Source: Convolutriloba macropyga
Lineage: Eukaryota
Assembly: GCF_964194025.1 (NCBI RefSeq)
Contig: NW_027451353.1
Location: 62,001-126,000, forward strand
Direction: 5' to 3'
Length of the DNA stretch: 64,000 bases
Shown here: piece after piece, positions 1 through 40,305 of the stretch
How positions within the stretch are numbered: the stretch's first letter is position 1
How the letters are laid out: every line of letters begins with the position of its first letter
Notes under the pieces: model-generated
What the model was told of the DNA's origin: nothing
Databases searched by the model: none
What the model saw: only the letters and a program-made list of their open reading frames with translations
Made by a program: the position numbers and the translations under genes

Positions 1-1850
1 TAACAATCCCAGATTTAAACAAAACCAGACTAGGTTTTACAAGTATTGCAAACGTTCAGGTCACACAATTTCATATTGCTTTAAATACAAAGACTTTATA
101 AACAAAAACCCGCCTCAAAATCGAGAAAAGTTCACAGATATTTATAAACGTAGTCGGAGCCATTCACCGAGTCAACAAAATTACAGATCAAACAATTATG
201 ACAATCAAAACTGTAGTGACCAACACAAAAATAATTATAACCAAAATCAATCAAATTATCGAAAGAACTCTAGGTCAGAATACCGACACCAATCACCATA
301 CCCATCAGACTCTTCAAACAATTAGCGATCATCATCCAACGATGGCCGGTCACAGGAACGACAAAGTAACTATGTAACAACTTTTATAGTGATAGCAATA
401 GGCAAAATAGTAGGGATAGACAGAGCAACGCTCCCCCAAGATCAGATAATTGGTATCGTGATAGGAGTAGGGACCAGGATCGTGATAGGACACCTACTAG
501 ACAAAGCAATGCTAATCATTCAAGAGATAGCAGTGATGGGCAAAGCCTTCGATTCCACTTTACCAGCGAAACTCCCGGAGGCTATTACAACGAGGACAAC
601 TACAACAAAGAGTATTTAAACTAGATCGGTCTCCGTTCATAAACACTACTAATAGCAAAGCAAGTTATTCACATATTTATTTTAATTTATATCAAACCAT
701 CCCAGACAAAAATAAAAATAACGGCTTAGAAACACAGTTTTTATTAGACACAGGAGCATCAAGCTCTATAATTAATTACTACAGTTACATTGAATTGTTG
801 AAAACACAATACTTTGAGTTGAAAGCTTCAAAAAATCATACTTTAATGGTTAATGATGAGAAACTAAAACTGCTAGGTCGAATAACTTTTATAACTTCTT
901 TCGACATTGAAGGAAAGTTACCAAGTGGAAGTTACCGCATGGCTTTCAGCCAAAGATGATTGCAAGCCAAACTTGTTGAGAATGGATTTCCACTGTAAAA
1001 ACCATGACACACCAAACAATTATGACAATCAAAACTGTAGTGACCAACACAGAAATAATTATAACCAAAATCAATCAAATTATCAAAAGAACTCTAGGTC
1101 AGAATACCGACACCAATCACCATACCCATCAGACTCTTCAAACAATTAGCGATCATCATCCAACGATGGCCGGTCACAGGAACGACAAAGTAACTATGTA
1201 ACAACTTTAATAGAGATAGCAATAGGCAAAATAGTAGGGATAGACAGAGCAACGCTCCACCAAGATCAGATAATCGGTATCGTGATAGGAGTAGAGACCA
1301 GGATCGTGATAGGACACCTACTAGACAAAGCAATGCTAATCATTCAGGAGATAGCAGTGATGGGCAAAGCCTTCGATTCCACTTTACCAGCGAAATTCCC
1401 GGAGGCTATTACAACGAGGACAACTACAACAAAGAGTATTTAAACTAGATCGGTCTCCGTTCATAAACACTACTAATAGCAAAGCAAGTTATTCACATAT
1501 TTATTTTAATTTATATCAAACCATCGGAGACAAAAATAAAAATAACGGCTTAGAAACACAGTTTTTATTAGACACAGGAGCATCAAGCTCTATAATTAAT
1601 TACCACAGTTACATTGAATTGTTGAAAACACAATACTTTGAGTTGAAAGCTTCAAAAAATCATACTTTAATGGTTAATGATGAGAAACTAAAACTGTTAG
1701 GTCGAATAACTTTTATAACTTCTTTCGACATTGAAGGAAAGTTACCAAGTGGAAGTTACCGCATGGGTTTCAGCCAAAGATGATTGCAAGCCAAACTTGT
1801 TGAGAATGGATTTCCACTGTAAAAACCATTGACATAAGCACTCCAAAAAT
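1..1850 (+). pseudogene. Gag C-terminal R/S/D/N-rich region plus retropepsin-type aspartic protease (two copies)
   Basis: TTATTAGACACAGGAGCATCAAGC encodes LLDTGASS(SIIN) at 741 and 1565. Upstream is low-complexity RDRSRDQDRDR-type coding sequence. Frameshifted. Confidence 0.8.
189..1834 (+). repeat. Tandem duplication of ~824 bp covering gag C-terminus and protease
   Basis: CAAACAATTATGACAATC occurs at 189 and 1013, and CACTGTAAAAACCAT at 991 and 1815 (offset 824). The copies are near-identical with scattered substitutions. Confidence 0.95.
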
Positions 1851-2651
1851 TGACTTGAAAACTTACCCTGAAGTAACCGTCGAACTATCTAGGTACCAAA
1901 CCAAAAGCTATTCGTTTGTTAGTTCCTTCAAAATTGCAACTCTTGATCAGCAGCTACCCTTAGCACCAAAATCAACTCGCGTAATATCAATTAGACAACC
2001 CAAACGAATTTTTCAGAAATTGAACCTCTTTTATAATCGGAAGTGGACTGCAAGCTCAAGGTATTTATACTCACAACGTTCAGTGTTTTAGAAAAGAAGA
2101 AGATCTACCAATAATGCCAAACAATGCTCAAAACAACAAGTTTGTCATTCATAAGGGTCCTATGGGGCACACTTTGGAAGACATTGAAGTTAAACAAGAC
2201 ATAGAATATTCTGTAGTTGACAACGTTGCATTCATAAACCACCTAATGAACACTGACACTAATTGGGATCAAATATTCCATGTTAACGAAAAGTAAGGTC
2301 CAAAAATTTCGAAAATTCAAAAATTGCTTTCAAACCAACAAAACCCCTGAAAAACAAAAGAAAACAGAAAAGCGCAAAAGACAGCAAGATTTTACCAAGA
2401 ACTACGAATTATAAACAGACTTTAGCGACGACCTTAAGGATCTTAAGCCACAATTAGAAACAACTGATGAGAACATCAGACCCGTTGAGCTTCCCAAAGA
2501 AAAACTTAACAGATTTGACAAAACCGATCAAGCGTTCCTCGAAGAATTTGATTTCAGTCAAGCTGACATCAGTGACGAAAACTTAGACAAATTACTGAGA
2601 ACTGTAATTAAAAATAAGGACGTTTATTCTAAACACAAATACGAGGTTAGC

Positions 2652-3583
2652 ATGATAAAGCAAAAATTTCATGTCAAACTTTTACCAAATACAACTTTAA
2701 CAAAACAGAGACCGTCCAAAGTACCGTTACATTATCAGGAAAAACAAGAAAACTTTTTGGAACAACTGTGTAAAACAGGTATAATCCGGGAAATGGGTAA
2801 TGATAAAGAAATGGGTTCAGAATTTATTAATCCAATCAGAATCCTACTTAAGGGGAACACAATAAAACTGATCGTAGACGCCCGATATTTGAATTCAATA
2901 ACAGATCTTAGCCGATTTTCATGGCCGCTCGAACCAATCGGAAGCCTATTAACTAGACTTAAAGGTAATTTCTTCACAACCAGTGATCTTTGTTCAGCTT
3001 ATATCCAAGTGCCTATAAATGAGGAAACCAAACAGCTCGTAAGTTTTGTAATTGGTCCAAAGCAATACACATTTGAACGCGGATTTAATGGACTATGCGG
3101 TCTACCTAATTTCTTCAGCCGTATAATGACTATTCATTTTGCACTATTAACCAAAAAAAAGCTATGACATACATTGATGACACCATCAAGCAAGAGCAAT
3201 ATGAAACCCAACTGTTTGAAATAATTGACAAGTACCATGAACTCTTAAGGAAATCAAGGTTAAAAGCTCAATCTGAAAAGACTAAATTTTTCCTTAGGAA
3301 AGTACAGTTCTTAGGACACGTAGAAGGTAAAGATGGAATGCAGCCAGTCAAGAGGCGAGTAGCAGATTTAAAAGCACTCAAGTCGCTTGAAAACAAACGT
3401 GATGTCATGAGAGTTATAGGTTACTTAGGATTCTACAGCATGTACATCAACAATTTGATCGTTGACTGCCAACCATTTTTTGAACTAACCCGCACAGAAA
3501 CTAAACTAGGTTTGTCTGGACAACGGAACACGAAAAACTGTTTAATGACATTCAAGACAGGATTAGCGAAGATAATATCTTAG
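2652..3583 (+). pseudogene. Reverse transcriptase (frameshifted)
   Basis: Motifs LIVDARYLN, FTTSDLCSAYIQVP, GLCGLPNFF, TYIDD, VQFLGH and GFYSMYI span ORFs 2652..3167 and 3164..3583. Confidence 0.93.
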
Positions 3584-4220
3584 CAATACCTGATACTAAA
3601 CACCCTTTCTACGTGCATGTAGACGCTCCTTCTAAAGGAGTAGGCTCATTTCTCGTCCAGAAATTTCCAGAAGGGAAACGAATAGTGTCTTTTAACTCTA
3701 GAATTTACACTAAAGAGGAACAAAAAATGAGCACACAGCACGCGAACTTTGCGGTGTAATATCTGCATTACAAACGTATGAGCCTTACTTAATTGGTTCT
3801 CCTCATCCCGTATACGTGTACATAGACGATAAGCCTTTAAGGTACCTATGGGGTAGACGAGGAAAATTCTCTCACAGGTTTTTCAGATACCAGTTAGTAA
3901 TTTCTCAATTTCAGAACTTGAAAATTATCTGGACCGAAGGAAAAAATTTAGCTTTTCTCGGCATTCTATTTCGTAATGTAAAAATTAAAGACCTTGACAA
4001 GTATCAACTTAAACACAAAAAGATACCAAAAGACATTAGTTTTTACGACGAGCATGGTAACAAGGAAAAATATTTCATTTTGCGTTATTATGAAAAGGGA
4101 CCAGCAGATGATTTTTTTCCAATCTTAAAACAAAGCTTAACAAGAATCGACAAATTTATTTTCAAAAACGACAAAATGGTGAAGCAAAAGTACGACAACC
4201 TTCAAAACCACCATAAATAA
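3584..4220 (+). pseudogene. RNase H (Ty3/Gypsy type), frameshifted
   Basis: Manual translation gives PDTKHPFYVHVDAPSKGVGSFLVQ...IVSFNSRIYTKEEQKMS, then YEPYLIGS..VYIDDKPL and EGKNLAF. Confidence 0.85.
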
Positions 4221-4770
4221 TATTTCCGAAGATTTCTCGCATGGTTCATCAATTAACCATTACAGACGTCACCGCGAACATGAAGTATCCCCTGTATCAG
4301 AACAGGAGGAGGACGAAATGTCTGACCACTATACAGAAATCCCTTCCTACCAGGAAGAGGAGACATCCAAACGATATTTTGATCCAATTTCGGAGTTTGA
4401 GCTGTTCAATGAGAACCAGCCGCCGAAATTAAATTTTGATGAACTCTACATTGATCAAAATAATACAACTGACTCGAGGTATAGGTTGCCATTCGAACAC
4501 GATAAAGTTTTTCTCGTGAAAAATAGTACATGTATAGATAAAACCGAATTAGCTAAAAAATTTCCCGAAAACCCAAAGTTAAAGATGCAAGAGAACTCAT
4601 CGATAAACTTACAACCTTCTCAAAGGAAATTGATCTAAATACTTCAGTATTTGTCAGGAACAATTAAAAGACCCTGTGATACGACAAATTTGCCAATTCA
4701 GGACGAACAATAACAAAGATGAGGAGAAAATTGAATTCCGACAATCCAGATGTTAAATATTTGAAAATTT

Positions 4771-6401
4771 GTGTACCACTGTCATTGTTCTTTAAAGTTT
4801 CACTTAGCTCATTGTGAACTGTCAGGTCATGGTGGATTAGATAAAACACTTGCTATAGTAAAAAAAAAATTTATTGGCCCGGAATGTATAAATGGATTGA
4901 AAACTTCAATCCAAAAACGGAGAGACATCCACAAAGCACCTCTTGAAAAATGGACTGATACAGTCCCATTCCCTTTTAATACAGTCTACATTAATCACAA
5001 GCGACCTTTAAATCCTCCATCGAACGGTAAACATGATTGCCTAGTTTTTGTCGACTCATTTTCACGTTTCATTCAGGTATACACTGTACGATCCACAGTT
5101 GCTGTAGATACCATAAAAGCTTTAGAAACATTTATTAAGTCTTTTGGAATACCACAAAAACTTGTTTAAGATAAGGGTTCCGCGTTCATGAACCAAGATT
5201 TTACGAGTTATATTCATGAATTAGGCATAACACCTGCACCTTGGACAGCTTATTCACCTTGGACTAATGGTAAAGTCGAGATCCAAAACAAACATCTAGG
5301 AGCACATTTCCCAATTTTTCTAGAACAAGCTCGAGGTCAATGGAATTATTTGGCACCAAAATTTGCTTTTTCTCATAACACGGTTCCAAACGGTAGTGCT
5401 GGAATCTCACCTTATGAAATTGTGTTCGGACAAAAACCACAGATACCTCTGTCACTTAAGTTATGGCTCCTACGAAATTCAGAACTCACATGCTCCTCCG
5501 AGTTTTGTAAAGACCTGCCCCTTCACAGGCAAACTTTGCAAACTTCGAAAAACACAAAAATTGACAAGCTCCTAAAACCTACCATAAACAATTCAAAGGT
5601 CATGCGTGAAAACCAATTTAAACAAATATACAATAACACCTATAAAAATAGCTTAGAAAACAATAACCGCGCACATAAAAACAGAAATAAACACAAGTTA
5701 GGTAAGCCACTGGATATTGGACAAAAAGTTTTAATTGAAAATCATCAAATTGAATTGGGAACGTCAAAAAAACTACATGAGCTAAGATCAGACCCTTATA
5801 CGGTAGATAAAAAATAACCAATGTGAACTACGAAATAAATTTAGATAACAACCCGGTTACCAGAAAAGTTGCTCATGTAAATCACGTAGTCGAGTACTAC
5901 CCAGCTACTGAAACTATACCAGAGTTAACCCTAGAATATGGTAGAGATAAAAATAATTGTTACACATTTTATAATAACTTGATAACAAGTCAAATGAATA
6001 AACTCAACAGTCCTTTGACTAAATTTTCGCTCCAAAGCCCAACTAACACCGAATTTTTCCCCGTGGAGATTTTCACAAGAGGAGATCCACCTGTGCAGAG
6101 CCTAGACCTTGATCGAACTCCCACCATTTTTGACTCTGGATTTAAAAAAGAAAGTTCAGGTAGCCGTGACAACTACCCTCTAGTTCCAATAAATCTGCCC
6201 AGTGACAGTCGAACAAGGAGCTCAACTCCTTGCAAGCTGAAAAATTCTAGAATACTTATAGACCCAAATTTAAGTCCTTTCCGCCCTATTAGATCGGAAC
6301 AAGGACCTTCTAATTTTCAAACTTTAGAAAATAATAATAATAGGCGAACTTCTAGTCACTTGACTAAGCCGCCATCAGGTTATCAAGCCGGATTTACTTA
6401 A
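4771..6401 (+). pseudogene. Integrase with GPY/F-like C-terminus and low-complexity tail
   Basis: HCELSGHGG (HHCC half), VFVDSFSRF, DKGSAF, SPWTNGKVE, SPYEIVFG, SDPYTV; interrupted by stops. Confidence 0.9.
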
Positions 6402-6506
6402 TTTTGATTTGAGATACTAGAAACCCAGTCAACATTTACTGGACGTGCCTATTACTACAATTCGTAGCCTTAACCCCTCGCTTGAAACGCTAAAAAAAAG
6501 AACAGA

Positions 6507-8760
6507 ATGAAAAGATATCCTTGTTTTGAAAAACTCTATTTTTCTTATTTAGTTATAAGTCTTTCCTACTTTTGTACTCCTTTTATAGTTATTAACTCTA
6601 CTGAACCTATCCTTGACGATATAAATGATGTATCTAGCAAACTTAGGGTCATTCGTTATGACTGTTCTAAAATGAAAGAAAACAAAATGTATGCTCTAAC
6701 ACAAGTTTCTCCTTGCAAAATCACACCCGAAAACATTCAGATGGTTGATACACATGTAACACTTTGTCAGCGGTCTTATCGGACTTTTGTCAAAGCTCTT
6801 ATGTGCAAGGTCACTGCGATGCTCATTCGTTATAATTGCGGAATGTTTTCCTATTCATCAATTCTACACAACGCTCCAATAATAACATACAAAATTACAG
6901 CTTCGCCTGAACAACGTTTAAATGCTAAAAAAACTGAAAAAATTATTGTTACAGAAATTGATGATGATGACATGGAAATTGACATAAAACATGGAATAAG
7001 AACTGTCTCTTATAAAAACCAGGGATTTGATCTTGAAGGTGAATCATCAACATCTTGTGATAAATTGTGGTCAAATTAAACATTTTTCTTTTGGAACCTT
7101 GTTGCAAGAAACCGTACTCTATATTGATCTTAATGACAGAACTGTCTATAACAGTCAAGGACTAAAATTTCCTTGTGCCCTCTCAGAAGGAGGTTGTCAT
7201 TCGACATCACTCGACTACTTTCCTTACAATTGGGAGGCACCGGAAAATTGTATAGTTACTAAAAGTTTTTCACAAAAAGCTAAAAAGCATAAACATGAAT
7301 ACGAACTTGGTAACGTACAGTATTTCATAGTGAGTGATGAAAAACCGGAGACGCCCTATGAAGGACCAGGAACGTTTTCTCCTGCTGAAATGGATATAAA
7401 AGTTAGAGTAGTCTATGAAAAAGAAATTGTGTGTGGAAAACCTGAGTTTATTTACAGAACAAATTTAGATTCTATATATGTACAGGCGGATTTAATATGA
7501 AGTCTGGCAAACCTTATAAGTCAAAAACTCAACAATTTTTTTCATAAACTTCGTATTGATCCTGACAACAGCCGAAGTGTAAATGGGTTTAATAGGAAGC
7601 CTTCAGATGAACAGATTCGAACATTCGAAAATGGTTTTGTTGCATGGGAACACTTAGACAAAGACAAGTTAGACTATGATCTTAACCTTGCGGTAAAAAT
7701 GCAATTTGTCATATGTCATAATTACATGCAAATGAAACAAGCATGGTTCGGTCATAGAGGAATGCAAACTTGATCGAACTCAAAAACAAATGATAGACAA
7801 AGATAAAAGAAAACAAATGATAACAAATGCAGACTGTCCAAAATAATCGTTTAGCTGGATACATATTAACTGGCAACTGCTCGATCTTCTTAGACACAGA
7901 TGGTAGCATAGGTTGGCTGTACCACTGTCCAAAACGAAACTCACCAATTAAGGTTCATGATCAGTGTTCTGATAGGATTCCTATTCACTATGATGATGAG
8001 ACAATGTTCGTCGACCCAATTACTCGACAAACATATCCATTTGCTAACGAAGTTAATTGTATTGGAGGCTACAAAACGCCTACCAATTAGGTATTGATAA
8101 TGATAATTCATGGTACCATTTGATACCAGCACTTGTTCCTTTACAACCGCCAAAATTATTCTCTTCAAGAGTTGTTAGTTCTGTTCCAAAATTTACCGGT
8201 TACGAATAACAACGTGCCGGAATTTACACACCAAATCAATTAAAATCGTTTTGTGACCATATCTTGCATTCGGAAGCATCAAAATCAGTTTTGACAAAAA
8301 ATTCGAGAGAAGTTCTAGAAAGAAGAAGTATAGACTACTCACAAAAAGGCATCTATGCGTCCGCGATGGGCATAAATAGACAAATTTATCTAGACTCTCT
8401 ACTCTCAACTACATTTTTTACGGAGCAGTTCAAAGGCACTTTTGGAATTATCACTTTCTATCTGTAAAAAATTGGAGTTTATTTTGCTTGTTTCTTGTGC
8501 ATAAAATTCCTTACTGATGTAATTGTAACTATCATTAGAGCTTTCGAAATCCACAAAATATCCAAAAAAATGGGTTTTTGGAAAACTGAATTAGGAGCAA
8601 TTTATTATATTTGTATTTTATCGTTCTTTACACCGGTATTTTCTAACAAAACCACACCATCGGATCCAGAAAACACCAATCATTTTTTACCGCTTAGTAG
8701 TTATCAACCTTACATCACAATAGAAAAAATTACAAATGCGTTGAGGATCAACCAAGGGAA
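6507..8760 (+). pseudogene. env: Env-like viral fusion glycoprotein (chuvirus-G / gB-like class III type, inferred), frameshifted
   Basis: N-terminal signal-like segment, then YDCS..MYALTQVSPC, CKV..YNCGMFS, CALSEGGC, YNWEAPENC, VCGK..IYRTN, WLYHCP and CSDRIPI..FVDPITR..C. Hydrophobic segments at ~8440-8640. Located directly after pol. Confidence 0.8.
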
Positions 8761-9017
8761 ACTAAAATTGATGAGCATTATCATACTGAAAATAACAAAC
8801 CAACATACCCAAGTTTTGAGCCATATCAACCACAACCACAAAATGATGCTACCATTTGAAGTGAGATGGCACCGTCTTGGGGCTGTAACCAAGAAGGAAA
8901 AATCATCCTTTTTATATAAAAAAATTACTTTGTCTCAAAACAACATAAAAATTATTTGTATTAGACCCTACCAATTAGTTATTATCTTGTTTAGATACAC
9001 CTCAAGGATGCTATGTT

Positions 9018-11257
9018 ATGCAGCCCAAATTCATTAAACAGACTAACACCTTATTCATTCGATTTGGACAATACATTGGACAAATCTTATCAACAAGTAC
9101 TTCTACTTTAGGAACTACTGTAACTATTAGAGTTTCATCTTTCTATTTCAGTGACCTTATTGATCTGGACGTACCGCACTCAAATTTTCAATATTTCTTG
9201 TTGTTAAGAGCCCTGGTTGATAACACAACTACATTTGTAAACATTGGAATCGAATACAAAATTGTTTCAAAGCGCCTCAAGTAAAACCTTGCTAGATTTT
9301 GAATTCCCTTGTTAGTTCAACATTGAGAGAAATGTGCAGATTCCTTTCTTTCTTTTTATTTCTTATAATCCAATTATGACTGTTTAATCGCAATTATGTC
9401 TATCTGGCTATTGCCTGAACTCTTCCCCTACTCCGATTGTGCTACAGGGAATCCTATTGAAAGATGATCTATAAATAGTAATCGTTGTCAATAATCCTAC
9501 TTTCAGAAGTAACTGGCACCTTTATATCATCTATCTTTACAAATAAGCATACGTCCATACACAGCTATGAAATGAAAAACAAACAAAATATTAACTAAAA
9601 CGCCTCCATTAACGTACTTTTTATTTCAAGATCGACTTGTTACAATCTATCAAATAAAGAAAACATTTGAAGAAAATCACGGAGCCATTTTCGCTCAAAT
9701 TATTATAAAATTTGAGTTTTGGGACACTTGGGTAACGACAGTGTCATTTTAACCCCTCATTCGTTGTATTAGAACTATTTCGTGTATTTAGCACAGTTTG
9801 ATCCTAATAGTTTGCGTAGTGAACTAGACCAGCAAACATGACTCATCTCACTAATAGAAAACTACAATTCAGAATCGGAAATCAAATTTTTGAGCTTTTA
9901 GCCTTATGCAATGTTTCTGCTATAAGTATAATGACTTTCGTGAAAAAGCCTATGGCAGATATTTACAGATTTTTAACAATATTCATTACCCATACTCAAT
10001 TCGCCGAATTCATCATTTTTCTAGCTTACAAACAGACCCGATATTTTAAAGTTCAACATCCAATCTACATTGCTTATGTACAATTCCAAACTATGATATT
10101 TGCTGTTAACAATAAAATTGTAGGGTTGCACCAAAATCAACGATCTTTCGATGCATACCCAATTCCCGTACCTACCATACAAATAACACTCAAAAAAGAT
10201 CCAAAATGAAAAATTTGGTTTTTTAAGTATTAACCCTCTCTCAGTCCATTGGAAATTCTTCCTCTTTATTCTAGAAAATCCAAACTGTGTACCTCACAAT
10301 ATTTATTTTGATCTGCCAAAAACTGATTCTTCCAAAACGATTCAATCACTAATGAGTTGGAAACAAAAACAATAATAATATTATCATACCAAAATTGCCT
10401 AGTACAAATTCAATTTTTTGAAAAATCATTTGTCACGACAAAATGCCACAGAGTAATCCCACAACTAATACTCCATTTTGAATATTTAAACACTTGGACT
10501 AATGGCAATATTACCTTAACGCCATCTTCCCCCTATTGGACATTTCTTATAAATATATCCCAGGCTTTAAGCGGCTCAAAAATCCCTTTTAATTTAGATC
10601 TTCTGTAATGCTGTTCCATTTTGGTGAGCGCCTAGTCAAAGTAGAGTCCCTCGAGAGATCGTTCACTGAAATTTCCACCGCAGAGATTAAACCCTGTATA
10701 ATAATCAATTATACAGACTACGAACATGGATGCGAGGGTTCTAATCGACTCACCATGTGAATGATGCACTGGTAAATTTTTCTAGCACTCATTGATATCA
10801 AAGAACACTTCCCAGTCAACTTGGGCGCTCTTGAGTAAAATAATTCAGTTTACAGAAAAAACTTTTTTCCCTTTAAACATTTTTTTCGCCAGCTCATTTT
10901 TTTCCCTTTCCATCTCTCTTTCTGTTAATTCATCTCTATTCAAATAAGTTAGTTACTTCCTCGTCGTTTTTTTTTGTGTTGTTAAAAACAATGATTTTAT
11001 TCGTTGGTAAGGAAAAAGTTAAAATTGTTAAAGTAGAAAGATGGTTAACTTTTTGTTACTTACAGTATGAATCCAGCAACAAAATAACTTATATGTTCCT
11101 AAGCACAGGTACCCTTAACCATTATTGCATTTATCCAGACGAGAAACACTGGAATCGCTTTTTTGCTATTGCAGATTTAAATGTAACTATCCCCAATGAA
11201 CTCAAATACCATGGATCAGAAGTCTCATGCCCAAATATCTCTGATTTGTCCATATAA
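9018..11257 (+). CDS. Tandem array of small (~80-95 aa) divergent paralogous accessory ORFs of unknown function; several frameshifted
   Basis: Shared pattern by eye: FLFQDRLVTIYQIKKTF (~9620), MIFAVNNKIVGLHQNQRSF (10093), LSYQNCLVQIQFFEKSF (10357 ORF), MLFHFGERLVKVESLERSF (10608) and MILFVGKEKVKIVKVERW (10991). C-terminal P-x3-[HY]W-x2-hydrophobic motif (NPLSVHWKFF, TPSSPYWTFL, YPDEKHWNRF). Confidence 0.65.
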
Positions 11258-11655
11258 TGGGAAACATTTTGAAAATATACTCTCAGCAACTACAAACTGA
11301 TAAAACCCCAATAATGGAATGCCCTATTTTTTACCTGCCTTGCCGTCAATTCAAAAAATTGCACAAAAACCCAAATGGTCAACCTCCCCATTTTGCTTGC
11401 ATCCCCTGTAGAAATGAGTTATTTAAATATTGGAATCAAGATAATTGCCCCATTTGCGTACCTCCCATTTATACAGTCACTAATTGCCATTATTTCCAGT
11501 GTAATACTTGTCAAGAAATCAAAAAGTTGTCCACTTGCCACAGTCATTTCAAAGACTTACACCCAAAAAAAACCTTTTGTTTGCAGTGTATGACCTTCAC
11601 AACTACAAAATGCCCTTTATGTAAACAAACAATTGACCCAAACAATCCGTGGTAA
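11257..11655 (+). CDS. Double RING-like zinc-finger accessory protein (copy 1), 132 aa
   Basis: HFACIPC..CPIC..YFQCNTC..H..FCLQC..KCPLCKQTI; open frame; starts MG; its ATG overlaps the previous stop (TAATG). Confidence 0.75.
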   Translation: MGNILKIYSQQLQTDKTPIMECPIFYLPCRQFKKLHKNPNGQPPHFACIPCRNELFKYWNQDNCPICVPPIYTVTNCHYFQCNTCQEIKKLSTCHSHFKDLHPKKTFCLQCMTFTTTKCPLCKQTIDPNNPW

Positions 11656-11693
11656 AATCTTCGATTCAAAATTTTGTTTGCAAACTATTCAAA

Positions 11694-11893
11694 ATGTTTA
11701 CACCTACATTACTTGATTTTTTATTAATGGCCCTCATGATCATGCAGCAGCCTTTTCTTTCGTTTTAACCATTTTCCTTGTAGCTGTAAGTATTCCTTTC
11801 AATTTTTTGATGTTAATAGTTATATTAGTAAAAAACCGAACAATAAAATCCCAAGGTAATCAACAACCAAATCCTCCAACCGTATCAGCTTAA
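11694..11893 (+). pseudogene. Small single-pass membrane protein ORF (frameshifted)
   Basis: Manual translation AAAFSFVLTIFLVAVSIPFNFLMLIVILVKNR...; frameshift in the T-run near 11720. Confidence 0.45.
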
Positions 11894-11925
11894 ACACAAT
11901 CGCCTCCAATGACATTCTTTCAAAA

Positions 11926-12306
11926 ATGAATACTATTGACAAAGAAACCAATACTGAAGAATCCAAACCGGTCACATTCATTTGCCTGTGCTGCAAACGC
12001 GCGAAACGATAGTTTTCAACAAAATAATATGAAAACTTCCCAAACGAATTACACCACGTGATGTGTCTGCTTTGTTATCAATATGTTATAAAAGATATGG
12101 GTTATGATTTTTGTACCAAATGCTCTAAATTTAATGTTATCTTTTCAATCCTTAACTGGTTTCAATGTGATATTTGCAGACAAACAAGATTTCAATACTC
12201 TGTTGCAAAAACATTTCATCACAGTGATCATAAGCCCATCAACTTTTGTAAATTTTGCGTAAAAGGTTACAACTTATGCCCTCTTTGCAAAAAAACAATC
12301 ACCTAA
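11926..12306 (+). pseudogene. Double RING-like zinc-finger accessory protein (copy 2), two in-frame stops
   Basis: ATG 11926 is in frame with ORF 12058: FICLCCK..HVMCLLC..FCTKC..WFQCDIC..FCKFC..LCPLCKKTI, which aligns with copy 1. Confidence 0.75.
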
Positions 12307-12312
12307 TCTAAA

Positions 12313-12450
12313 ATGCGTCCAAAAACTTCCAAAATTTTAATTCCTTTCCTGGTTTTACTTTTAGTCCACTTGATATCCCTAATCCAATTCAGTTTTTACC
12401 AGGAACAAGTCACCTTTTTCACCCTATTTCTTCACTACTCAGTGATATGA
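12313..12450 (+). CDS. Small hydrophobic ORF (45 aa)
   Basis: MRPKTSKILIPFLVLLLVHLISLIQFSF...; starts 6 nt after the previous stop and ends 4 nt before the next ATG. Confidence 0.4.
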   Translation: MRPKTSKILIPFLVLLLVHLISLIQFSFYQEQVTFFTLFLHYSVI

Positions 12451-12454
12451 CAAA

Positions 12455-12649
12455 ATGCACCCCATAATATTGTTTATTCTTTTATTTGCTCTGCTGAGCG
12501 TATTGGCAATATCATTTTTATCAACTATTATCTCCTTTATGCAATCGGCCAAATTTTTTCCAGATACGGAAGATGACCGATCTAGATCTCACAACAAAAA
12601 TATTTATCCTAATCTTAATTACCTTACTTGCCATATCGTTCCTCATTAA
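12455..12649 (+). CDS. Small single-pass membrane protein ORF (64 aa)
   Basis: MHPIILFILLFALLSVLAISFLSTIISFM hydrophobic stretch followed by a polar tail with IYPNL. Confidence 0.5.
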   Translation: MHPIILFILLFALLSVLAISFLSTIISFMQSAKFFPDTEDDRSRSHNKNIYPNLNYLTCHIVPH

Positions 12650-12718
12650 TCTCATCCTACTTCAATTTCTCGAAGGTTTTCCTGTTTTTGTCTAAGAAAA
12701 ATAAAAAACAGTCACTCA

Positions 12719-13090
12719 ATGGGTCTCTCACAATCCCTACTTGACAGTTTTCGTTGGCTCTATCCCAATAAGGACATTATTTGCACAATATGTTCGCTCA
12801 AAACCGTTATTGTAGAAAAACTAAACAAATGATTCCCCAAAGAAAATCCACACTATGTATGTATTCCTTGCAGAAAGGCCCTTTTTAAAAGATACTCAAA
12901 CCCTAAATATCCCATCTGTCTTCGACCCTGTCTTCCCGTCCCGATTCTACTTCCGATGCAATTTATGCAAAAAAAAGAAAACAGAATTAAGAGTAACAAA
13001 ACACCCACATTTTTCCCAACATGAGGATCGTCGATTCTGTCCAGTATGGATAAAAAAGCAGACAAAATGTCCCATTTGAAAAAATTTTTT
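12719..13090 (+). pseudogene. Double RING-like zinc-finger accessory protein (copy 3), N-myristoylation-type start
   Basis: MGLSQS..ICTIC..HYVCIPCRKALFK (cf. HFACIPCRNELFK), then a frameshift to YFRCNLC..RFCPV..KCPI*. Confidence 0.7.
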
Positions 13091-13422
13091 AGTCGACGTT
13101 GTTTAATAAACCAAAAACAACTCGAGTCAAAACGACCTTTTTTCACATTTTTCACCTTTTCCTCGGGAAGGGGTCACCTCAGCTTTCTCCAGCTTGCCCT
13201 CCCGGGCTTTAGAACCTACATAAGTTGGAATATCTAGCCAAAATTTCATCCATTTAATAATCTCCTTCATGGCCATTTACATAACAATCTTAATCTTATG
13301 CAACATATTTCAAATTCTTCTTTCCTTCCTTGAAGAGGGAATAAAGTTTATCTTATGGGCTTAAATCTACGGTGGAACACTAGCAGGATAATTGAAAAAT
13401 GATAAAAATAATCTCTTTCTTT

Positions 13423-13556
13423 CAGCTCAGCAAGTTTGTCTCCCCAGCTGCACGGGTCGTTCCAACCGTGTTAGTGTGACACACGCCCCAAGACTCACAC
13501 CTCCGGGCAGCGGAGAAAAACGTACTTGTGCCAGGGCTGCCCGCCTGGCATAAGTA
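13423..13556 (+). promoter_or_regulatory. Structured cis-RNA element: consecutive hairpins with complementary (kissing) loops
   Basis: 13-bp stem TACTTGTGCCAGG/CCTGGCATAAGTA (one G-U) with loop GCTGCCCG, complementary to CGGGCAGC (13504-13511) in hairpin CTCC..GGAG. Upstream stems CAGCT/AGCTG, CACGG/CCGTG and GTGTGA/TCACAC. Confidence 0.55.
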
Positions 13557-13773
13557 TAAAATTTTTTATTATTCCACCCTCTTTCATTAAATAAACTTTG
13601 CAGGTAGCAAAAAAACTTTTCTACCAAACTTTGATAAAAAATGCATTTAGCATTATAATTTGTAAAGAAAGCAGTTAGCAATAAAACCTTACAAGAACAT
13701 TTTTAGAATTGAATTCTTTTTTATATTAGCAATACATTTGCAAACATGAAATAGAAGCCATAATGTGTGATAA

Positions 13774-14996
13774 TTGAGGACACAGGCTAACCAAAAGAAA
13801 AAATTTTACATTATCAACAAGAAGCGGAAAGAACTAGAAATGGCAGCCAAGAAGATCCCAAGCTTCATTATTCCCGTTCAAAGTCAAACGCCGCACCATC
13901 TAACAATCAACAACAAGCACAGATCCATCAAACACCAATTCCCGCTTTCTCAAGCCCACCATTCAAACCTCGAATCACAGTAACCCAAACGGCCAAAAAC
14001 AGCTCAGAATTTTACCCACAATACAACTGACAAGTTAGCAGAAAGGGACCAATCACAACCCAACAAATTAGTAGTCACAAAAACAAAATTATTAAGCTTA
14101 TCAACATTGAAGATCTCGTTCCCGACGCTATCAGAAAAATACCTTCAGAAGGCTTGGAATTGCAGAAACCACGAGAGGAGAACATGGGCAAAGAGAACCC
14201 GAGGTACGTTAACACCCTTCTCTATTTCTTCAAACCAAAGTGAAACAAATTCGAGGTTGCTGATAAAATAAACATCATCCAGTTAAATGGACATCAATAA
14301 CTATTAGCCAACAGCGAAAAACTTCCAGTTCTAAAAACTTTCTCGCTTCCCACAGATAACAGCAAATAGAGAATTAAAAATCTTGACCCTAAGAAGGGCA
14401 CCTATATCCTTAGAAATAACTTGGTCGACGTATACATTGAAATCCCCTATGATGCAATTTCTGCTTTTCCTGTCGAGATGCCAGAACTGACGAATATCAA
14501 TACCAGTAAGCTAATAGAAGAAAACACCAAATTTAGTCAGGAACTATTTCAAAAGGAAACAGAGTTGCAAGAACTGCAACTGAAATTCGAACAACTAAAA
14601 ATGGAGTCGCAGAAACTACCAGAGGAGAAACAACAACCTAACGACTATTGGCAGCGCCAATGTGTCGTTGCCCATCAACTTCAAAAAACCAGCGAATCGA
14701 ACGCAAAAACAATGTTAAAAACGTTTTCTTTGAAACATTTAGAAATAACAAATGCCAACAAAAACCGGAGAAAAGAATCTGGAGCTAGGAAAGAAAATAA
14801 CTCAATTAATGAAGGAAAACGTAGAACAAAAAGCCAAAATTTCCGAACTCAAAAGAAAGGTAAAAATTACAAAAAACGACAGTCGATGGATAAAAACGAA
14901 CCTATTGAAGACGATATACAGAAAGTTCTTTTAATCGAAGACGATGACAGTCCAGTAACAAGCCCGGTCATCTTACCACCAGAATTCTTTAACTAA
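13774..14996 (+). pseudogene. Terminal accessory ORF with coiled-coil region, frameshifted
   Basis: Overlapping ORFs 13774, 14421 and 14752 with heptad-like E/K/Q/L-rich sequence (ELFQKETELQELQLKFEQLK; LGKKITQLMKENVEQKAKISEL). Confidence 0.5.
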
Positions 14997-15055
14997 CATG
15001 GTCACCACCCTTTGCGGTTTATTTTGCATCTCACCACTCCAGTTCTTTTACAGCT

Positions 15056-15190
15056 TTTTGCGATCTTTTTATAGCACAAATGTATCGCCTTTTGCGGTCT
15101 TTTTTATAGCACAACTTTATCGCCATTTGCGATCGTTTTTATAGCACAACATTATCGCCCTTTGCGATTGATTTTGTATTACGACGCCAT
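15056..15190 (+). repeat. ~35-bp tandem repeat in the 3' UTR of the retroelement
   Basis: About 4 copies of TTTGCG(A/G)TC..TTTTATAGCACAA...TATCGCC. Confidence 0.8.
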
Positions 15191-15367
15191 CAAGCCTCGT
15201 ATTTAACCAACTCCTGCAAACTTCGCAACCAACCTACATTGGCAACCTCCAACTCAATTGATTACAACCCCAATCAATGGAAGCTTGAACAAAACTCAGA
15301 ACTTACCTGACCTTCATTTAAAAGTTTTATATGATGTAGAATAATTTATTAAATCTGTTTCTCACTG

Positions 15368-15382
15368 AAAATTGGGGTGAGC
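15368..15382 (+). other. Polypurine tract (candidate)
   Basis: AAAATTGGGGTGAGC immediately followed by TGTA. Confidence 0.6.
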
Positions 15383-16704
15383 TGTAGTATTACGAGAGCC
15401 AATACAAATGAAAGAATAAATAATTTTGCATTACAACGAACGCTTTTAGGCGTTAATTAACCATTATATCGCTGCGCGCTGAACAAATTAACGCTTGTTA
15501 AGACTACCAGTACACAAGTATTTAAACTACTTAGATCGACTTATTTAAATTAACACAACTTTAGGCCTGGATCTCCTCGCTTATATCCAGGATAGAAAAT
15601 GTACGTTGTTGAGCGTAGGCGGTCTGTATAACCACACTTTCTTTTGATTTATATCACTTCAGCTTTTGACAGTTGCATTGCAGATCTCTTCCCCCAAGTT
15701 CAATAAGATGAAGCAGATTACTTCAGGGGAAAAGACAATAGAGTCTCATAAAAAGCCCCCAGGAAAACCATAATTGTTGCGGTTTTAGAAGAGGGGAAAA
15801 GCAGAAAACAGGCGCCTACGTGATCAATAATTGATGCTCTCAGCTTTTTAGATTTTTATTAATTTTTGGATTTTCAATCATTTTTCCTTGAGATAAAAAA
15901 GAGTTAATTCTCTTGCCTTCTCGGCCCATAGGAAAATGAAGAAGCACCTCACTATGAATGTGAGTTTGTGATTTGCTCCCCATTGGCCCAAATTGAGCTG
16001 AGATGAATTTGTAAATTCTCTCAGCGAAGTGGGACGGAATAAAGGTAGAGAGACAGAAACAAGAACCAGAAATCAGCTGCAGACAACTGCTTTCCTATTT
16101 TTTGATAAATAGCTCTAAATTCAGAACAGAGATTGCTTATAACTTTCAAACAGAAAATACTCAAAATACACAGTTTAAACAACTTAACTTACAATTTCTT
16201 CATTAAATCTTATAAGTTTTTTTCCCGTCTAAACTGAAAATCTAACCGACTAACAAGAAGAACTGAACGATCGCTACTCAGCTCATCTCGATATCACAAC
16301 AATGCAACTGGTAATTAGTAAGCTGTAACTTTATATTTATTTTTTATAAATTAAACACTTTCTGCCCCCCCCCCCCCAACAATTTTAAATTGAGACTTAT
16401 AGCACAGACTGGTCTTGGGCATATATCTTTGCCTTCGATTTGTTATATCTTTTGTGTCAAGTAAGACTGACATACATAAAAAGATCCCTTATCGTGTGAT
16501 CTGTAGCAGCCCAGCCTAATTTGATACATCAACTTAAGTTCTCTCCTGATCATCAGGCAAAACATCAATCATGAGCAAAATTTTAATTTGGTTTTAGCCA
16601 AAATTATCTATAATAGCTTGGTGACCACTACCAGTTGTCATAAACCGAAGTACTCCTTTTTAACGTCGCCAGTAAGTGTACAACAAAACAACAAACCACT
16701 TACA
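15383..16704 (+). repeat. Probable 3' LTR (right end tentative)
   Basis: Begins TGTAG after the PPT; candidate end ..CTTACA at 16704 (TGTA/TACA). The 5' LTR is outside the window, so this is unconfirmed. Confidence 0.45.
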
Positions 16705-19700
16705 GGGCAATGAAGCAGAAAAAGGTTTATATTGAATCCTGTTTTTCTCAGAAGACATTGAGAAAACCTCATCTGATGGTAAGACTCAAAACTTTAAAAT
16801 GCTGAAAACGAAGAGAAAATGCTTTTATATAAAATAGCTTTTGAAATTAAATATGAGAATTTGTGTTTCCATGAAAAGCTGGAACAAATAGGAAATACGA
16901 ATTCTTTAATTGAAGGAAAACCTTAAAGTTTTCTTAAAATAAATAATTTTGGAATAGAAGCTATCAACAGCATAAATGAAACCCGATCAAACAGACTAAA
17001 ATGTAGTTCAGATAATTCATGTTCCTAAAAATATTGTGCTTCCCAAAACATAAACCGTGGCCAGGAGACAAAAATTATACATAAATAAGTGCATAGCTAA
17101 TTTTTGTTCACCTCAATTAGGAACGGACGCATACTAAACACATTGCTTGAATTGACTTTTAATATGGGTCTTAACTAATTTTTTATGCCTATAGTTGTTG
17201 CAAAAAACTTAATTCTATTGGAAATCTAATGTTTTTTTGCTGACCATCGGACATCAAATTTTATACAAAAATTAACAATCAGTGTTTAAATTTTTTAACT
17301 TCTGAAGTAAAAACAAGTTACTTGATTAATTTTGAAAAAAATAAACGGTCGTCAAAATATAGAATTTTTGTGAAAATTATGTAATGGCTATTCAGAAAAC
17401 TCTATGGTAAAGATATACGAATTCTCACTCAGGAAAAGCTTACAACGAGCTTTCAACTGTTATAACTCTGTCCGAATATTAGGTTTCTGCAGTTAATTTT
17501 GTTAATTATTTGATCCGCTGTAGTGTAGATTACTGGTTCATTGTTTGGTACTCAATAGGCTTCGAAGATTAATCGTCTAGCTTTGCTGAATAGCAATTCT
17601 TTTTGCTTGAATTATCGAATATCTCCAAACAATTAAACAAATTTTTGTCAATAATTCTGACAGTAAAACAATTCAGGGAAATCCCGAATCAAAAAGCTTT
17701 GGTCCATTGTTGTGCAAAGTTTCAGGACTGTAATTTAATTAAAGCAACAAATTGATATTCTCAGAATTTACTAAGGAAATTATGGCGCTTCTTTGTGATT
17801 TTTTTATTCAAATCCAGTTCACAGTTGGTTTAAATAACATCAAAAAGGAAACTTGGCTCTACTTTGTTGAAGTTGAAGCCAGCACAATAAACTGCCCTTG
17901 TTTTTTAAAAATTACTATCAATTAGGAATTTTATTCCTCAACAGACAAAGAGATTGCGAATATCAAAGTTCAGTTTTTTCATTAAGTCAAAGTAAGTTAA
18001 GCTGTACAATCACTTAGATGAAGTACAAGAACAAAAAAACAGTTAACGCTCGAGAATTTTGTTTCAAAACGTGATGTATATTTTTTAAAAGACAAAAACA
18101 ACGAATTTCAATTTGTTTTGGTATATTATCAAGCTCATTTTTTACGGCTAGTCACTTCGTTTTACATGTCAAAATTGCATCGTTGATTCCCTTTTGATTA
18201 AAGGCGTCGTCAGAAATTGAATAATTTTCTACTTTTCAGTTTAAATTTGTTGTCAACAGAACTCCTGTAACTGTCTAAAACAATAGCGATCATTCAGTGC
18301 TAGCAAACGAAATGGCCGCGAGCCAATAGTATCATAACTGACGCAAAGTGATAGTAGATATTATAAATTGCACAAAGGTTGGAATACGGATTTGCTGATA
18401 GCGAAACACTTCGATTTTGAGCTTCACTAGATGAATGATATTCACGCACCAAAATTAGTTAATAAAATTAATAAAATAGCTGACAAACGTTAACTAATTG
18501 ATAGAGCTCTGATGAAAATTAGTAATAATTTTTGTTTGTCATATGCTTTTCTACCTCTAATGTTTAATTTGCTCTCGACTGCGTTAAATTTGACTTCAAC
18601 ATAACGAGCTTGTTTTACATCATTTAAACATCATTGCTGTTTGGTAGTTCAGGAGTGAGGTTCACTATTGGTGTTTTAAAACACCGTCATTTATTCAATT
18701 TTTCTCTGATGGACTGAAACCATCAGACCTTTCGATGGTCACCGTAACTCGATTCAATTTATATTAGCCTTGCATATTGCTGTCTTTGATCGGCCAATTG
18801 AGAATACCTTCCAACAGCTCCCAAAATATCATGGTATCTCTAACAGCTTTTAAGTTATAGTAGCTATATCGAAAATGATCTCTCCGATTTGGTGCAGAAG
18901 AATTTTTTTCAATTTCATAATTTTTTTCGCGGTTTCAGAGTTTTGATTTCCGAATTCCACTGGCAAAAAAACAGCTTTGAGAACAAAAAACTGCGTCGAC
19001 GTTCATAATGGTCAAAAAAGAAAAAAGACACGACATTTATACAACACACTATTTGTGTTTAGAGAGGCTAAGTGTAGTTGGGGTCTCCAAAAAGGTTTGT
19101 TTATTTCAAAGAACAGCTTTTTTCCCAGCCTAAGAAACTTGAAAAAGTCATGACAAAAAGGTGTATAACCTTTCAGTGATCTTCAGTACATTGTCGATAC
19201 GCTTCTCGCGAGAAGTTAAGAGCATACTACTTCAATGTAATTCAGAAGTCAACTTAAAGCAGTAGTTCTCAATTTGTGCTTATAGTGAATTCGTATTGGT
19301 ATCTTCTGAAAAGTAAGGCTGAAGAATTGTAAACTGTTCTCCACTTGATGAACTATTTGAATAATCCTAACAATTTATTAGTTTAACCGCGAAAACAATG
19401 CATCACAAGTAAACAAATTTTAATTTTATTATCCAAAGTCTCGTAAACAACATCACTCTGACAGCTTTGTTTGTTTTCAAGTAAAATTTTATGAAAAGAA
19501 ACAACACCTGTGGAAAATTAGACACCTTTTACAGTACATTGTTGTTGTTTATAGTATAAGAAGGAATCCCTCAGACAAGAATCCGATTGGCCGTAAGAAT
19601 GTTGATTCTGTTCAATAAAAAGTACTAATATTCGGAGGGTGGGGTTTGTCTTTAAAAATAATAATAGGAGCGTGAATTTTTAATAAAATTAAATGATATT

Positions 19701-20187
19701 TTCAGAAAAATCCTAATAACCTTCTCTCTTGATTTTCAACTTATTTGAACTTTGAAGTAGAAATTAATCAGTTTTTTTAATCTCATTCACATCAACAACG
19801 TTTTTGGCGACTTTGGTTTTATGAATCTATATTATTAAAACTTTGCCATGGACATCTGTATGCTTTTGATGTCCAGTATTTCAGTCAACTGCAGTCCCAG
19901 GTATTGTCAGATCAAACCAATTTTGTGCAGTCACAGTTTTCAATTAAAGATCAATTGTGCAGTTCAATAACTCTATTTTTCCCATAAGTATCTTTTCATT
20001 CCGAAAGCAAAACTTTAAGATTTTTTCTTGTCGTTTTTCGAACAAACTGTTCAGACTTTAAAAACAATTAGCAAAAAGTGAACTTGATAACTTGACTATC
20101 ATGCAGTTTAAATTACTACAATTATTATAGATACCGTTTTTTTATTATGAGATCGGATCCGTCATTTTTTGTTTAAAAAAAGCTCAC

Positions 20188-28634: not shown

Positions 28635-28849
28635 ATACATAAACCACCATAAAAAACCTGGAATATGAAACAACTAACCAACTAAGAGCACAATTGCTAT
28701 AAACTGAGTGAAAAGACTTGCAAAGCAAGTGCAACGTATGACTTTTTTACAGGTATAACACGATGGCTTTCTTATGACTTTTTTGCGGGAAATCATGGCT
28801 TTCTTTAGTTTTTTTAACGTTTTTGCGATACAATGGAGGGCTAGATATA

Positions 28850-37800: not shown

Positions 37801-38390
37801 TTTATAGAAACACTGAAAATCTTTAAAGACTGTCTGTTTTTGAGGATATAGAATTAATATTAGGCACCAAAATAATTTCCAACCTTTGAATTTTTTACTG
37901 GTAGTGCAGTTTGGTTTCAATATTATCAATGTAAGGGCTTAATAATTATCATATTGTAAGAAATCTTGGAACTCTTTACAAAATTTTATCCTACATTTGT
38001 TTTGTTCTTTTATCTAGTTCTGCATTATTGCTCATTTGATGTTTTAAAGATATATTGCTTCAGCTTTAATTTAGCACAAAAATCTACTGCTGTGATCAAT
38101 TTTTATGGAAATCGTTATAAAAAGAAAGAAAATCGTTCGAAACTTAAAAATTGTGAGCAAAAAATTATACATGCAGAGAAACTCCTTAACTTATAACTTT
38201 TTATTTAATGAGTCAAAACTTATTTTCAATAGCGCAAAATAACGCTCAAAATATGAGCTTGCAAACATTATTAAGAGAGGGTAGTTTAGAGGGAGATAAA
38301 AGCTCTTCTTTTGCCACTTTTTTCCTAAAATATCTTAAAATTGACCTCAATTTGCGAATCATTGCTTAATAATTTCTTACAGACAGCGAA
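28850..38390. repeat. Satellite: ~365-bp monomers changing into ~1.41-kb higher-order units (~6 copies)
   Basis: Marker GATGGGCGTA at ~29293, 29662, 30028, 30392, then in pairs at 31434/31797, 32839/33206, 34250/34616, 35660/36027 and 37073/37435. Confidence 0.95.
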
Positions 38391-39229
38391 TACAGCATAA
38401 TTCTACAGCAAATTATTCAGCTCATTTCATGCGCATTTTGAAAATATAATTTACTATTATGCTCTTCCTACATTTTATCAACAAAATTTTGCTTTGATTG
38501 GGCGGTACTTTTGCCCAATATGTGGTAATAAAACGTTTTTTTTTAAGTTTAGCAGTTGAATAACTTTTATCTAGCTTTTGTTACCCGGGTTACCATAGCT
38601 CATTTTAAAGCTTATTTTACGTTCGTTAAGAATATTGCAAATTTACTTCGAAAAAAAGCATCAAATTGGCTAATTTTAGCATTTTTTTGAGGATACCAAT
38701 ATTCGAGGAATTCGACCTGTCAATGCTCAAAATCGTCGAATTAAAATTTTAGATTCACCGGACAAATGTTATATAGTTGTAAAGCCTATTATCTCCTCAG
38801 TTCAGAACCGTTTTTAATTTTTCAAACAAAGATCTCGTTCAGGAGATATTAGTGTTTTTTTGACCTATACCTCGAAAAATTCGAATTCCGATCAATTTTA
38901 GTTATGGTCACGTGTCAATACACGCTAACCGTCAGCAGGTATTTGTTGGCAAATAATGCTGTCGGGATGTATGCTTGTTTCTTGTGGATGGCATAGGCCA
39001 CTCTGGGCATAGGCCGTAGAATGTGGTCAGGGTCCCTCTTACACTTTTTTATTAAAGTGATTATAATCATTGTACTGTTCATTGTTTCAGATTAGTTGGT
39101 TATAAACGAAGTGTTATATGAAGAGTTATAAACGAAGTGGCACCGTAGAAAAACACAAAGGGTTGTTTATTTTGCTGACTGTATCTAATGGCTTCACAGT
39201 GAGTATTGTTAGGTATTATTATTATTAAA

Positions 39230-40305
39230 TTCACATCGAGCACATGGTTCCGGGTCTTAATCTCTGTCGATGTCCCCACTCGTCACTGAGCTTTTTTTCG
39301 CAATCAGCTAATGGAAAAGTGATGTTATAAATATGGTTTAAAAGCTTGTTTCATGGCGGGCCCAAAAAGCTTAGTCCTGTCGCAATTGATACGGTAGTTT
39401 GGTAAATATTAAAGATTTCAGGTCGTGTACCCCGAAAAAGTGAGGTATGCCATGTGCTCGATCGTTAATAATTTTTTACAGAGCAGTTGTAATTGGCTCA
39501 AATTTTGATATGATGTGTCTCATTGTGTCTATTAACTATACCAATAGGTCCAATCACGTTGCGTTTTAATGTCGCTGAAAAATTCATCTTTGAGGACATG
39601 GTATACGGTTTGGCCACAGGTCGATGTACGCACTCCTCACTGAGCTTTATTTCGCGATCAGCTGATGAAAAAGTAATGTTATATATATGGTTTTAAAGCT
39701 CGCTTTATGACGGTTCTAACAAACAAGGTCCCATTGCGATTGGCACAGTAGTTTGGTAGATATGGAAGATTTCAGGTCGTGTTCCCCGAAAGAGTGATGT
39801 ATGCCATGTGCTCGATCGTTAATAACTTTTTACATAGCAGTTTTATTTGGCTCAACTTTTGATATGATGTGTCTTATTATGTCTCTTAACTATCCCAATG
39901 GGTCCCATTGCGTTGCGATTTAATTTCGCCGAAAAATTTGTCATTGAGGACATGGTATACGGTGGGGCCCTAGGTCGAGATACCTACCGCTCACCGGGCT
40001 TTATTTCACGACCTACTACAGCAAAAGTGATGTTATGTATCTGGATTTATAGCTCGTTTTATGACGGTTCTAACAAGTTAGATCCCTTTGCAATTGGTAC
40101 AGTAGTTCGGTAGATTTCAGGTCGTGTACCCCGAAAAAGTGAGGTATGACGTGCTCGATCGTTAATAACTTTTTACATAGCAATTGTATTTGGCCCAAAT
40201 TTTGATATGATGTATCTTATTATGTCTGTTAACTTTCCAAATAGGTCCGATCAAGTTGCGTTAAAATTTCGCCGAAAAATTTAGGATCGAGCACATGGTA
40301 CCCAA
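39230..40305. repeat. ~350-bp tandem repeat, about 3 copies, running into the gap
   Basis: GATTTCAGGTCGTGT(A/T)CCCCGAAA at ~39414, 39768 and 40113. Confidence 0.88.

Follow-up and report, generated by a model that had tools for sequence, protein, structure and literature searches.

Extent and boundaries of the element

The window analysed here, a 64-kb stretch of the genome of the acoel Convolutriloba macropyga, begins inside a gag gene and continues on the forward strand with a broken pol, a broken env, a series of short frames that includes three zinc-finger-like genes (ZnF1 to ZnF3), an accessory gene that we call ORF4 and a putative 3' long terminal repeat (LTR). We consider it likely that these first 16.5 kb are the 3' part of a Ty3/gypsy LTR element (order gag-pol-env-accessory genes-LTR) that occurs in many copies, of which this is an older and decayed one, and that resembles an endogenous retrovirus (ERV). 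The start of gag, the PBS and the 5' LTR lie beyond the window edge. The 3' end of gag (1-1448, zinc-knuckle region and tail) was recognised by tblastx against the gag of a distant relative, the locus L001 described below (77% identity over 26 amino acids). The end of gag and the protease are spanned by an 824-bp tandem duplication (180-1834, 97.8% identical) that is probably private to this copy; the depth of run X1 falls to about half over the bins of the duplication.

Contigs from four runs were mapped on positions 1-20,000 of the window, and their summed depth, which does not equal copy number, was used for the boundary only. In run X1, which like X2 may stem from the source sample, this depth is 5,800-16,600 over positions 1-14,007, 2,500-2,800 over 14,008-15,341 (ORF4) and 27,600-49,600 over 15,342-16,675 (LTR), with only 37-207 downstream; the pattern of run X2 is the same. 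A single-copy contig of depth 23.5 spans 16,498-20,000 with zero differences. At the left side a purine-rich tract is followed by TG at 15,383, and an identical GGGGTGAG-TGTAG junction is found after the last ORF4 copy of L001; at the right side loose contig ends lie at 16526, with CA at 16,528. From the depth peak, the shared junction and the CA matching the loose ends we infer a 3' LTR of the TG...CA type of about 1.15 kb (15,383-16,528, forward strand). No second LTR of this kind was found within the 64-kb window. The element measures 16.5 kb or more and, if its gag and LTR are as in L001, we estimate some 18 kb for the whole. In addition, one contig joint found in runs X1 and X2 connects the integrase (5237) to position 11684, which suggests that a derivative of the family has lost env. 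A 35-bp repeat (15056-15168, 3.3 copies) lies between ORF4 and the purine tract.

gag and pol

The pol gene (1361-6401, forward strand) is present as broken pieces in the order protease, spacer, reverse transcriptase (RT), RNase H, bridge and integrase with a C-terminal tail, the last integrase frame stopping at 6401. Its pieces matched the Pfam families RVT_1, RT_RNaseH_2 (E 5e-17), RT_RNaseH, rve, Integrase_H2C2 and Integrase_p58_C, most of them below the cut-off. A metagenome scan for env relatives gave five loci from 66 stretches (L001 to L005). Of these, L001 (13.2 kb) is the sole one that reaches upstream of env, with a gag, a pol in two frames and an open env, and it is 57-65% identical to the window in the main RT, RNase H and integrase pieces. 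The gag of L001 matches PF03732 and its pol PF17917, PF17919, PF17921, PF22938 and PF24626; no BEL-specific Pfam family was matched. Relatives of the RT were found in none of 14 stretches of the viral contig set. On the basis of Pfam and best matches we read pol as Ty3/gypsy, with the order PR-RT-RH-IN.

The best match of the L001 integrase is a foamy virus integrase (116 bits, against 94 for Ty3), and the element recalls foamy-like fish ERVs in its accessory ORFs downstream of env and in being about 17-18 kb long (PMC6431247; this and the other publications below are cited from the portions accessible to us). Pol could then come from an Odin-, loki- or foamy-like lineage close to retroviruses, and the element would be a relative of complex retroviruses instead of Ty3/gypsy. 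We regard this as very improbable: the L001 RT is nearer to Ty3 (122 bits) than to foamy viruses (92 bits), the set of Pfam families is that of Ty3/gypsy, and only RT_RNaseH families, no second RNase H family, were matched in the L001 pol at E 0.1. Odin elements are defined, in the descriptions available, by a dual RNase H and the lack of env.

The spacer between protease and RT (1804-2296) is also present in L001. It has what we take to be a resemblance to a dUTPase motif; Pfam and PDB searches gave no support to a dUTPase identity, which was discarded.

The env gene and its siblings

An ATG at 6507, 105 nt past the integrase stop, opens a frame of 190 amino acids, the longest open env piece with a start, which has a hydrophobic beginning and the motif YDC..YAL..V..C. 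The first-pass annotation of this DNA had noted the motif (as YDC..Y[AS]L..V..C) and described an ORF of about 750 codons directly after the integrase, ending at 8760. The gene and its position hold, but there is no single ORF. By tblastn, the best-matching sibling protein (P0001, 786 aa) aligns at 74-86% identity with five consecutive frame pieces (6507-7061, 7063-7752, 7827-8075, 8072-8728 and 8725-8874) and also with one short piece in an alternative frame; in-frame stops are found near 7498, 8207, 8465 and 8857. Seventeen residues of P0001 (418-434) are unaligned; of its 21 cysteines, 20 fall within the aligned pieces and 18 are kept in the window. Since P0001 can be aligned piecewise through frameshifts and stops, env (6507-8877, forward strand) is a real gene that is dead in this copy, and its end has to be moved from 8760 to near 8877.

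The intact form of the gene is found in the siblings, which are about 82% identical to the env of the window and have open frames of about 786 aa. They fall in clusters of 148, 90, 1 and 47 members. Among the 46 members listed, at least 750 aa are reached by 11 of 31 in the three close clusters and by 5 of 15 in the distant one. The early proposal would have failed if sibling elements lacked the ORF; actually they carry env. The window copy is broken, siblings have an open env, and L001 combines gag, a two-frame pol and an open env that is 43% identical to that of the window family. Further away, a representative library contained 1127 env relatives at E 0.001 and 104 at 1e-30; the viral contig set contained none in 12 stretches.

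The N-terminus of P0001 (residues 9-34) is hydrophobic, its cysteines number 21, and further hydrophobic stretches lie at 640-676 and 689-707, in agreement with the signal peptide, cysteine-rich body and C-terminal anchor proposed earlier. The element accordingly has, after pol, an env encoding a signal peptide, an ectodomain and a transmembrane anchor, as read from the hydropathy and the model of P0001.

Env is a class III glycoprotein

The first window piece of env (6507-7076) matched PF24664 (Monjiviricetes_fusion) above the cut-off (E 2.8e-12) and another (7824-8087) below it (E 6.9e-5); with the open sibling P0001 the match reached E 2.3e-39. When Env was compared with the ESM Atlas, clusters of PF24664 came first (score 0.96), followed by clusters of gB and rhabdovirus G. 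The model of P0001, built from an alignment of 54 sequences (mean pLDDT 74), has beta-rich domains and a central helix (392-439). Foldseek against viral models gave 195 matches at E 0.001, with chu-like, qin-like and xinmo-like glycoproteins at the top (E 4e-31 to 7e-30 and 14-17% identity for the chu-like and qin-like ones), and against solved structures 111 matches headed by herpesvirus gB (E 1e-12). VIA-align gave Z 8.4 with prefusion HCMV gB and Z 7.0 with gB domain IV (rmsd 4.0, 165 residues aligned). Over the whole chain the scores stay low (TM about 0.2, rmsd above 30); it is the E-values and the agreement of local domains that carry the fold match. At E 10 the PDB had no sequence matching Env.

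At the domain level, the modelled Env has a class III fold of the gB/chuvirus type. Pfam, the ESM Atlas and Foldseek all back this assignment, which had been suspected from the letters only, and the best structural matches are viral glycoproteins and not non-viral proteins. The contrast drawn earlier with the baculovirus F type of Env is also borne out, as Env is placed in class III and no F-type protein appears among the structural matches listed. Furthermore, no furin motif (R-x-K/R-R) was found in the ectodomain of P0001. With a class III Env and no furin motif, the element falls outside the class of the insect errantiviruses, which have a class I F-type Env with a furin site and a fusion peptide.

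The closest structural neighbours are glycoproteins of chu-like viruses, and captures of this kind have been described in mosquitoes (PMC7642597), so that env might have come from a chuvirus that inserted recently (EVE) next to or within a gypsy element. This is extremely improbable and largely refuted by L001. The identity of Env to viral proteins is only 14-17%, and L001 has a 43%-identical env in the same place after a 57-65%-identical pol, which points to a long co-descent of env and pol.

The region between env and ORF4

After env, the window continues at repeat-level depth with several short frames (8878-11256, forward strand), of which 9823-10209 and 10877-11257 are hydrophobic; no Pfam match above the cut-off was obtained for the frames of this region that were examined. 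Then follows ZnF1 (11257-11655, forward strand), an open ORF of 132 codons with 14 cysteines in two RING-like halves. Its cluster has 117 members, 84% identical. All 15 members listed are 131-133 aa long, and two identical sequences are found on 26 and 13 contigs. Two stretches of ZnF1 matched the RING family PF13920 below threshold (E 8e-4, 19.6 bits with a cut-off of 27), and the PDB gave no sequence match under E 1. A similarity to the arenavirus Z protein (PF03854, E 0.041) was dropped as weak.

Two paralogues of ZnF1 follow on the same strand. ZnF3 (12719-13079, one stop and a frame change) was found by tblastn with the ZnF1-type protein P0216 (E 9e-9, 45% over 51 aa) and by an HMM (E 5e-9). 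The link is weaker for ZnF2 (11926-12306, two stops), which was detected by tblastn of P0216 (E 8e-4, 27%) and by alignment, the HMM search not being significant. Among and after the ZnF genes (11717-13364, forward strand) there are short, strongly hydrophobic frames at 11717-11893, 12307-12450, 12446-12649, 12498-12695 and 13224-13364, with 19-residue hydropathy maxima of 2.6-3.1. Judged by sequence, these are candidate small membrane proteins, or else chance frames in AT-rich DNA.

ORF4, a conserved and mosaic accessory gene

ORF4 (13840-14996, forward strand) is an accessory gene of about 390 aa, broken in this copy and recognised by homology to ORFs located after env in L001, L002 and L003. 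A screen of 2322 candidates gave 33 relatives within the family; they form variant groups whose identity to the ORF4 of the window is 69-81% or 41-47%. In the model, a disordered N-terminus is followed by a small beta domain and a long coiled coil; there is an acidic tail, and basic clusters are present in all five variants examined. All Pfam matches were below the cut-off and BFVD gave none at E 0.001. With VIA-align the only matches were coiled coils of a generic kind (Z 7.4 at best, so none reaching 8), and the beta domain (residues about 100-215 of P0225) was barely covered. These blanks in family and fold searches do not show a new fold. The best ESM Atlas score of ORF4, 0.76, was treated only as a lead and rejected.

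ORF4-like frames are located 3' of env in the distant loci, two in L001 and one each in L002 and L003. The sequences of the other two, L004 and L005, run out no more than 61 and 9 bases from env, so ORF4 is present in all three informative distant loci (env 37-43% identical). The relationship was recovered in both directions. An HMM of the four ORFs from L001 to L003 put the window ORF4 at the top of the six-frame window (E 0.001; next and unrelated, 0.76), and an HMM of the 33 family ORF4s put those four ORFs at the top of 125 frames (E 2e-6 to 2e-3; next, 0.44). Together with hhalign (85%, E 6e-6), these values are of modest significance and partly due to the coiled coil. Compared with L001 to L003, the beta domain of ORF4 in the window family has an insert of about 39 residues (window about 14190-14460; residues about 128-215 of P0225) which seems to repeat the first strand unit internally. 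In L001 (9651-12092), a frame of 102 aa separates two ORF4 paralogues that are 28% identical; next come a purine tract and an LTR containing tandem repeats of 61 bp.

The genes are also linked in the siblings, a linkage inferred from equal contig sizes and not from DNA, where one contig may hold several copies. Exact size matches among 108 ORF4 contigs were found for 16 of 31 contigs with a close env and for none of 14 with the distant env; of 22 ZnF1 contigs, 8 matched an ORF4 contig and 2 an env contig. In the nine of the 16 pairs that have a long env (36 comparisons), env is 93.4-98.5% identical and ORF4 44.8-99.7%. One ORF4 (P0247) is a mosaic of three parts, 96-100% identical to P0248, then 92-100% to P0246 and then 89-100% to P0250.

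The alternative to be weighed here is that of an ordinary three-ORF "ancient errantivirus" with gB-type Env, in which the 6.5 kb past env would be a nested or adjacent repeat, or cargo with no role. An occasional ORF acquired behind env is known from other LTR elements (PMC6431247), the depth falls about four-fold over ORF4, and no homologue of the ZnF genes was seen by tblastx in L001. The drop in depth fits as well ORF4 variants too divergent to map (41-43% amino acid identity). The repeat-level depth is unbroken from env to 14 kb and the contig joint links the integrase (5237) to 11684; env and ORF4 share contigs in the size matches (16 of 31); and ORF4 stands directly before the purine tract and LTR both in the window and in L001, and 3' of env in L002 and L003. 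We consider this alternative improbable and keep the downstream genes as part of the element.

A predicted protein of C. macropyga in RefSeq, XP_075257559.1 (P0341), is a member of an ORF4 cluster, so the family is represented in this acoel. The model has 1005 aa, of which the first 300 or so are ORF4 (44% identical to the window) and the remaining 700 or so an unrelated low-complexity, coiled-coil protein. It represents either a chimeric gene model or an ORF4 exonised into a host gene.

Comparison with known elements

An HSV/gB-type, chuvirus-like env adjoining a gypsy pol has been described across metazoans by Chary & Hayashi (eLife 2026, PMC13524379), who call these elements "ancient errantiviruses" and class 221 of 1,512 elements as ENV_HSV. 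The first-pass annotation had proposed a once-infectious, non-errantivirus endogenous retrovirus lineage. In the light of that catalogue, this env lineage is of a known kind. Both share the order gag-pol-env, a class III Env flanked by signal and transmembrane segments, a multicopy state and a dispensable furin site. The present element differs in its extra ORFs (about 6.5 kb) and its length of at least 16.5 kb, compared with about 8-13 kb for the published elements with LTR coordinates among the rows inspected. The words "accessory", "zinc finger" and "downstream of env" are absent from the text of PMC13524379, and no acoel or xenacoelomorph names were found in that text, seven supplements and the genome table.

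With the mosquito BEL/Pao elements that carry a Chuviridae-like glycoprotein (Dezordi et al. 2020, PMC7642597) our element shares the class of glycoprotein inside an LTR element. Unlike them, it is not BEL/Pao: its pol has Ty3/gypsy Pfam families, its RT is nearest to Ty3 and its Env is only 14-17% identical to viral G proteins. The Tor elements of Oikopleura (PMC4402516) are also gypsy-like elements of a marine invertebrate with a membrane glycoprotein Env, and provide a model for expression beside germ cells; in the account available they have no accessory ORFs described, unlike the present element. Extra ORFs and a larger size are found, as here, in planarian Burro, in foamy-like fish ERVs and in bdelloid elements with an ORF3 (PMC6431247, PMC5408684). 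In the same sources Burro has ubiquitination-related extra domains and an env inside the polyprotein, and the extra ORFs of the bdelloid elements replace env, neither of which is the case here; ORF4 matches none of the domains that they name. CERV of the C. elegans element Cer1 (PMC10309623) is an element-specific accessory protein, made from a spliced mRNA, that regulates genomic RNA; for ORF4 it is a functional analogy only. In the literature searched, from which most subscription papers and Repbase were absent, we found no env-carrying acoel element and no ORF4-like gene, which does not establish their absence from print.

Possible life cycle and significance

Acoels have pluripotent adult stem cells. 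In our proposal, trimeric Env on gag-pol particles would let them fuse with stem or germ cells nearby, in the manner of the Drosophila errantiviruses, so that the element would once have been infectious. In Drosophila, Env on budding particles fuses into neighbouring cells and the germ line is reached in this way (PMC13524379). The gB-type entry mechanism is unexplained there and, according to its authors, the term errantivirus implies no shared amplification mechanism. Alternatively, Env might have been retained for something other than infection, for instance the fusion of cells or budding inside the cell, with the element spreading by retrotransposition only, in stem and germ cells; the ectodomain of P0001, free of an R-x-K/R-R site, would agree with that. 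The signal, the ectodomain cysteines and the anchors are conserved in env relatives that are only 31-43% identical, gB-type Env proteins have a furin site that is "not always conserved" (PMC13524379), and Tor of Oikopleura expresses its Env, a membrane glycoprotein, next to germ cells (PMC4402516). We therefore think a non-infectious role unlikely and retain the infectious one.

The products of the 3' genes would target the host cell, and their RNAs would arise by splicing or by internal initiation of transcription. For ORF4 we tentatively suggest, by analogy with CERV, Rev or Tas, a nuclear, oligomeric regulator of the RNA of the element, acting on export or transcription; that it is an antagonist of host silencing is rather doubtful, as is some other role. 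The ZnF proteins are most likely RING-like proteins of host interaction or of the ubiquitin pathway. Template switching between co-packaged RNAs may reshuffle ORF4 segments among subfamilies and leave env near-uniform.

Env itself adds only one more member to a published kind; it is the conserved, recombining accessory region and the phylum of the host that take the element beyond it. It is possible, though we put it forward with reserve, that we are dealing with an undescribed lineage of "complex" gB-type ERVs of marine invertebrates, the first one in Xenacoelomorpha. In such a lineage an ancient ORF4 would stand before the 3' LTR, a cassette of RING-like and small membrane genes would have been added in this host, and segments of ORF4 would be swapped under a conflict over silencing, similarly to lentiviral and foamy virus accessory genes and evolved independently in Ty3/gypsy. 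We consider the 3' cassette more important than env: if this reading is true, Ty3/gypsy viruses of invertebrates reached the organisation of complex retroviruses, and the cassette offers named genes with many natural variants for the study of element-host conflict. The acoel host extends the gB-type elements to a phylum apparently unsampled, in the material available, by the survey that argues for their Pre-Cambrian origin (PMC13524379), and co-divergence of these elements thereby becomes testable in acoels.

Other features of the window

The remainder of the window contains a second, young gypsy element without env (52472-59790), with LTRs of about 414 bp that are 98.8% identical, a 5-bp target duplication, a PBS-like TGG start and an open pol frame of 1412 codons. 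It is inserted in a degenerate G/T-rich, telomere-like satellite (48908-52471 and 59791-64000) with a GC skew of about 0.85 and subunits of 14-44 bp. Tandem arrays with units of 368 bp, about 1.4 kb and 354 bp occupy 28828-38412 and 39266-40300, with 242 N near 40.3-40.6 kb. Finally, broken frames at 45148-48395 contain what we take, from their motifs, to be a piece of a SET domain, an EnSpm/CACTA-type transposase and an SGNH-like protein.
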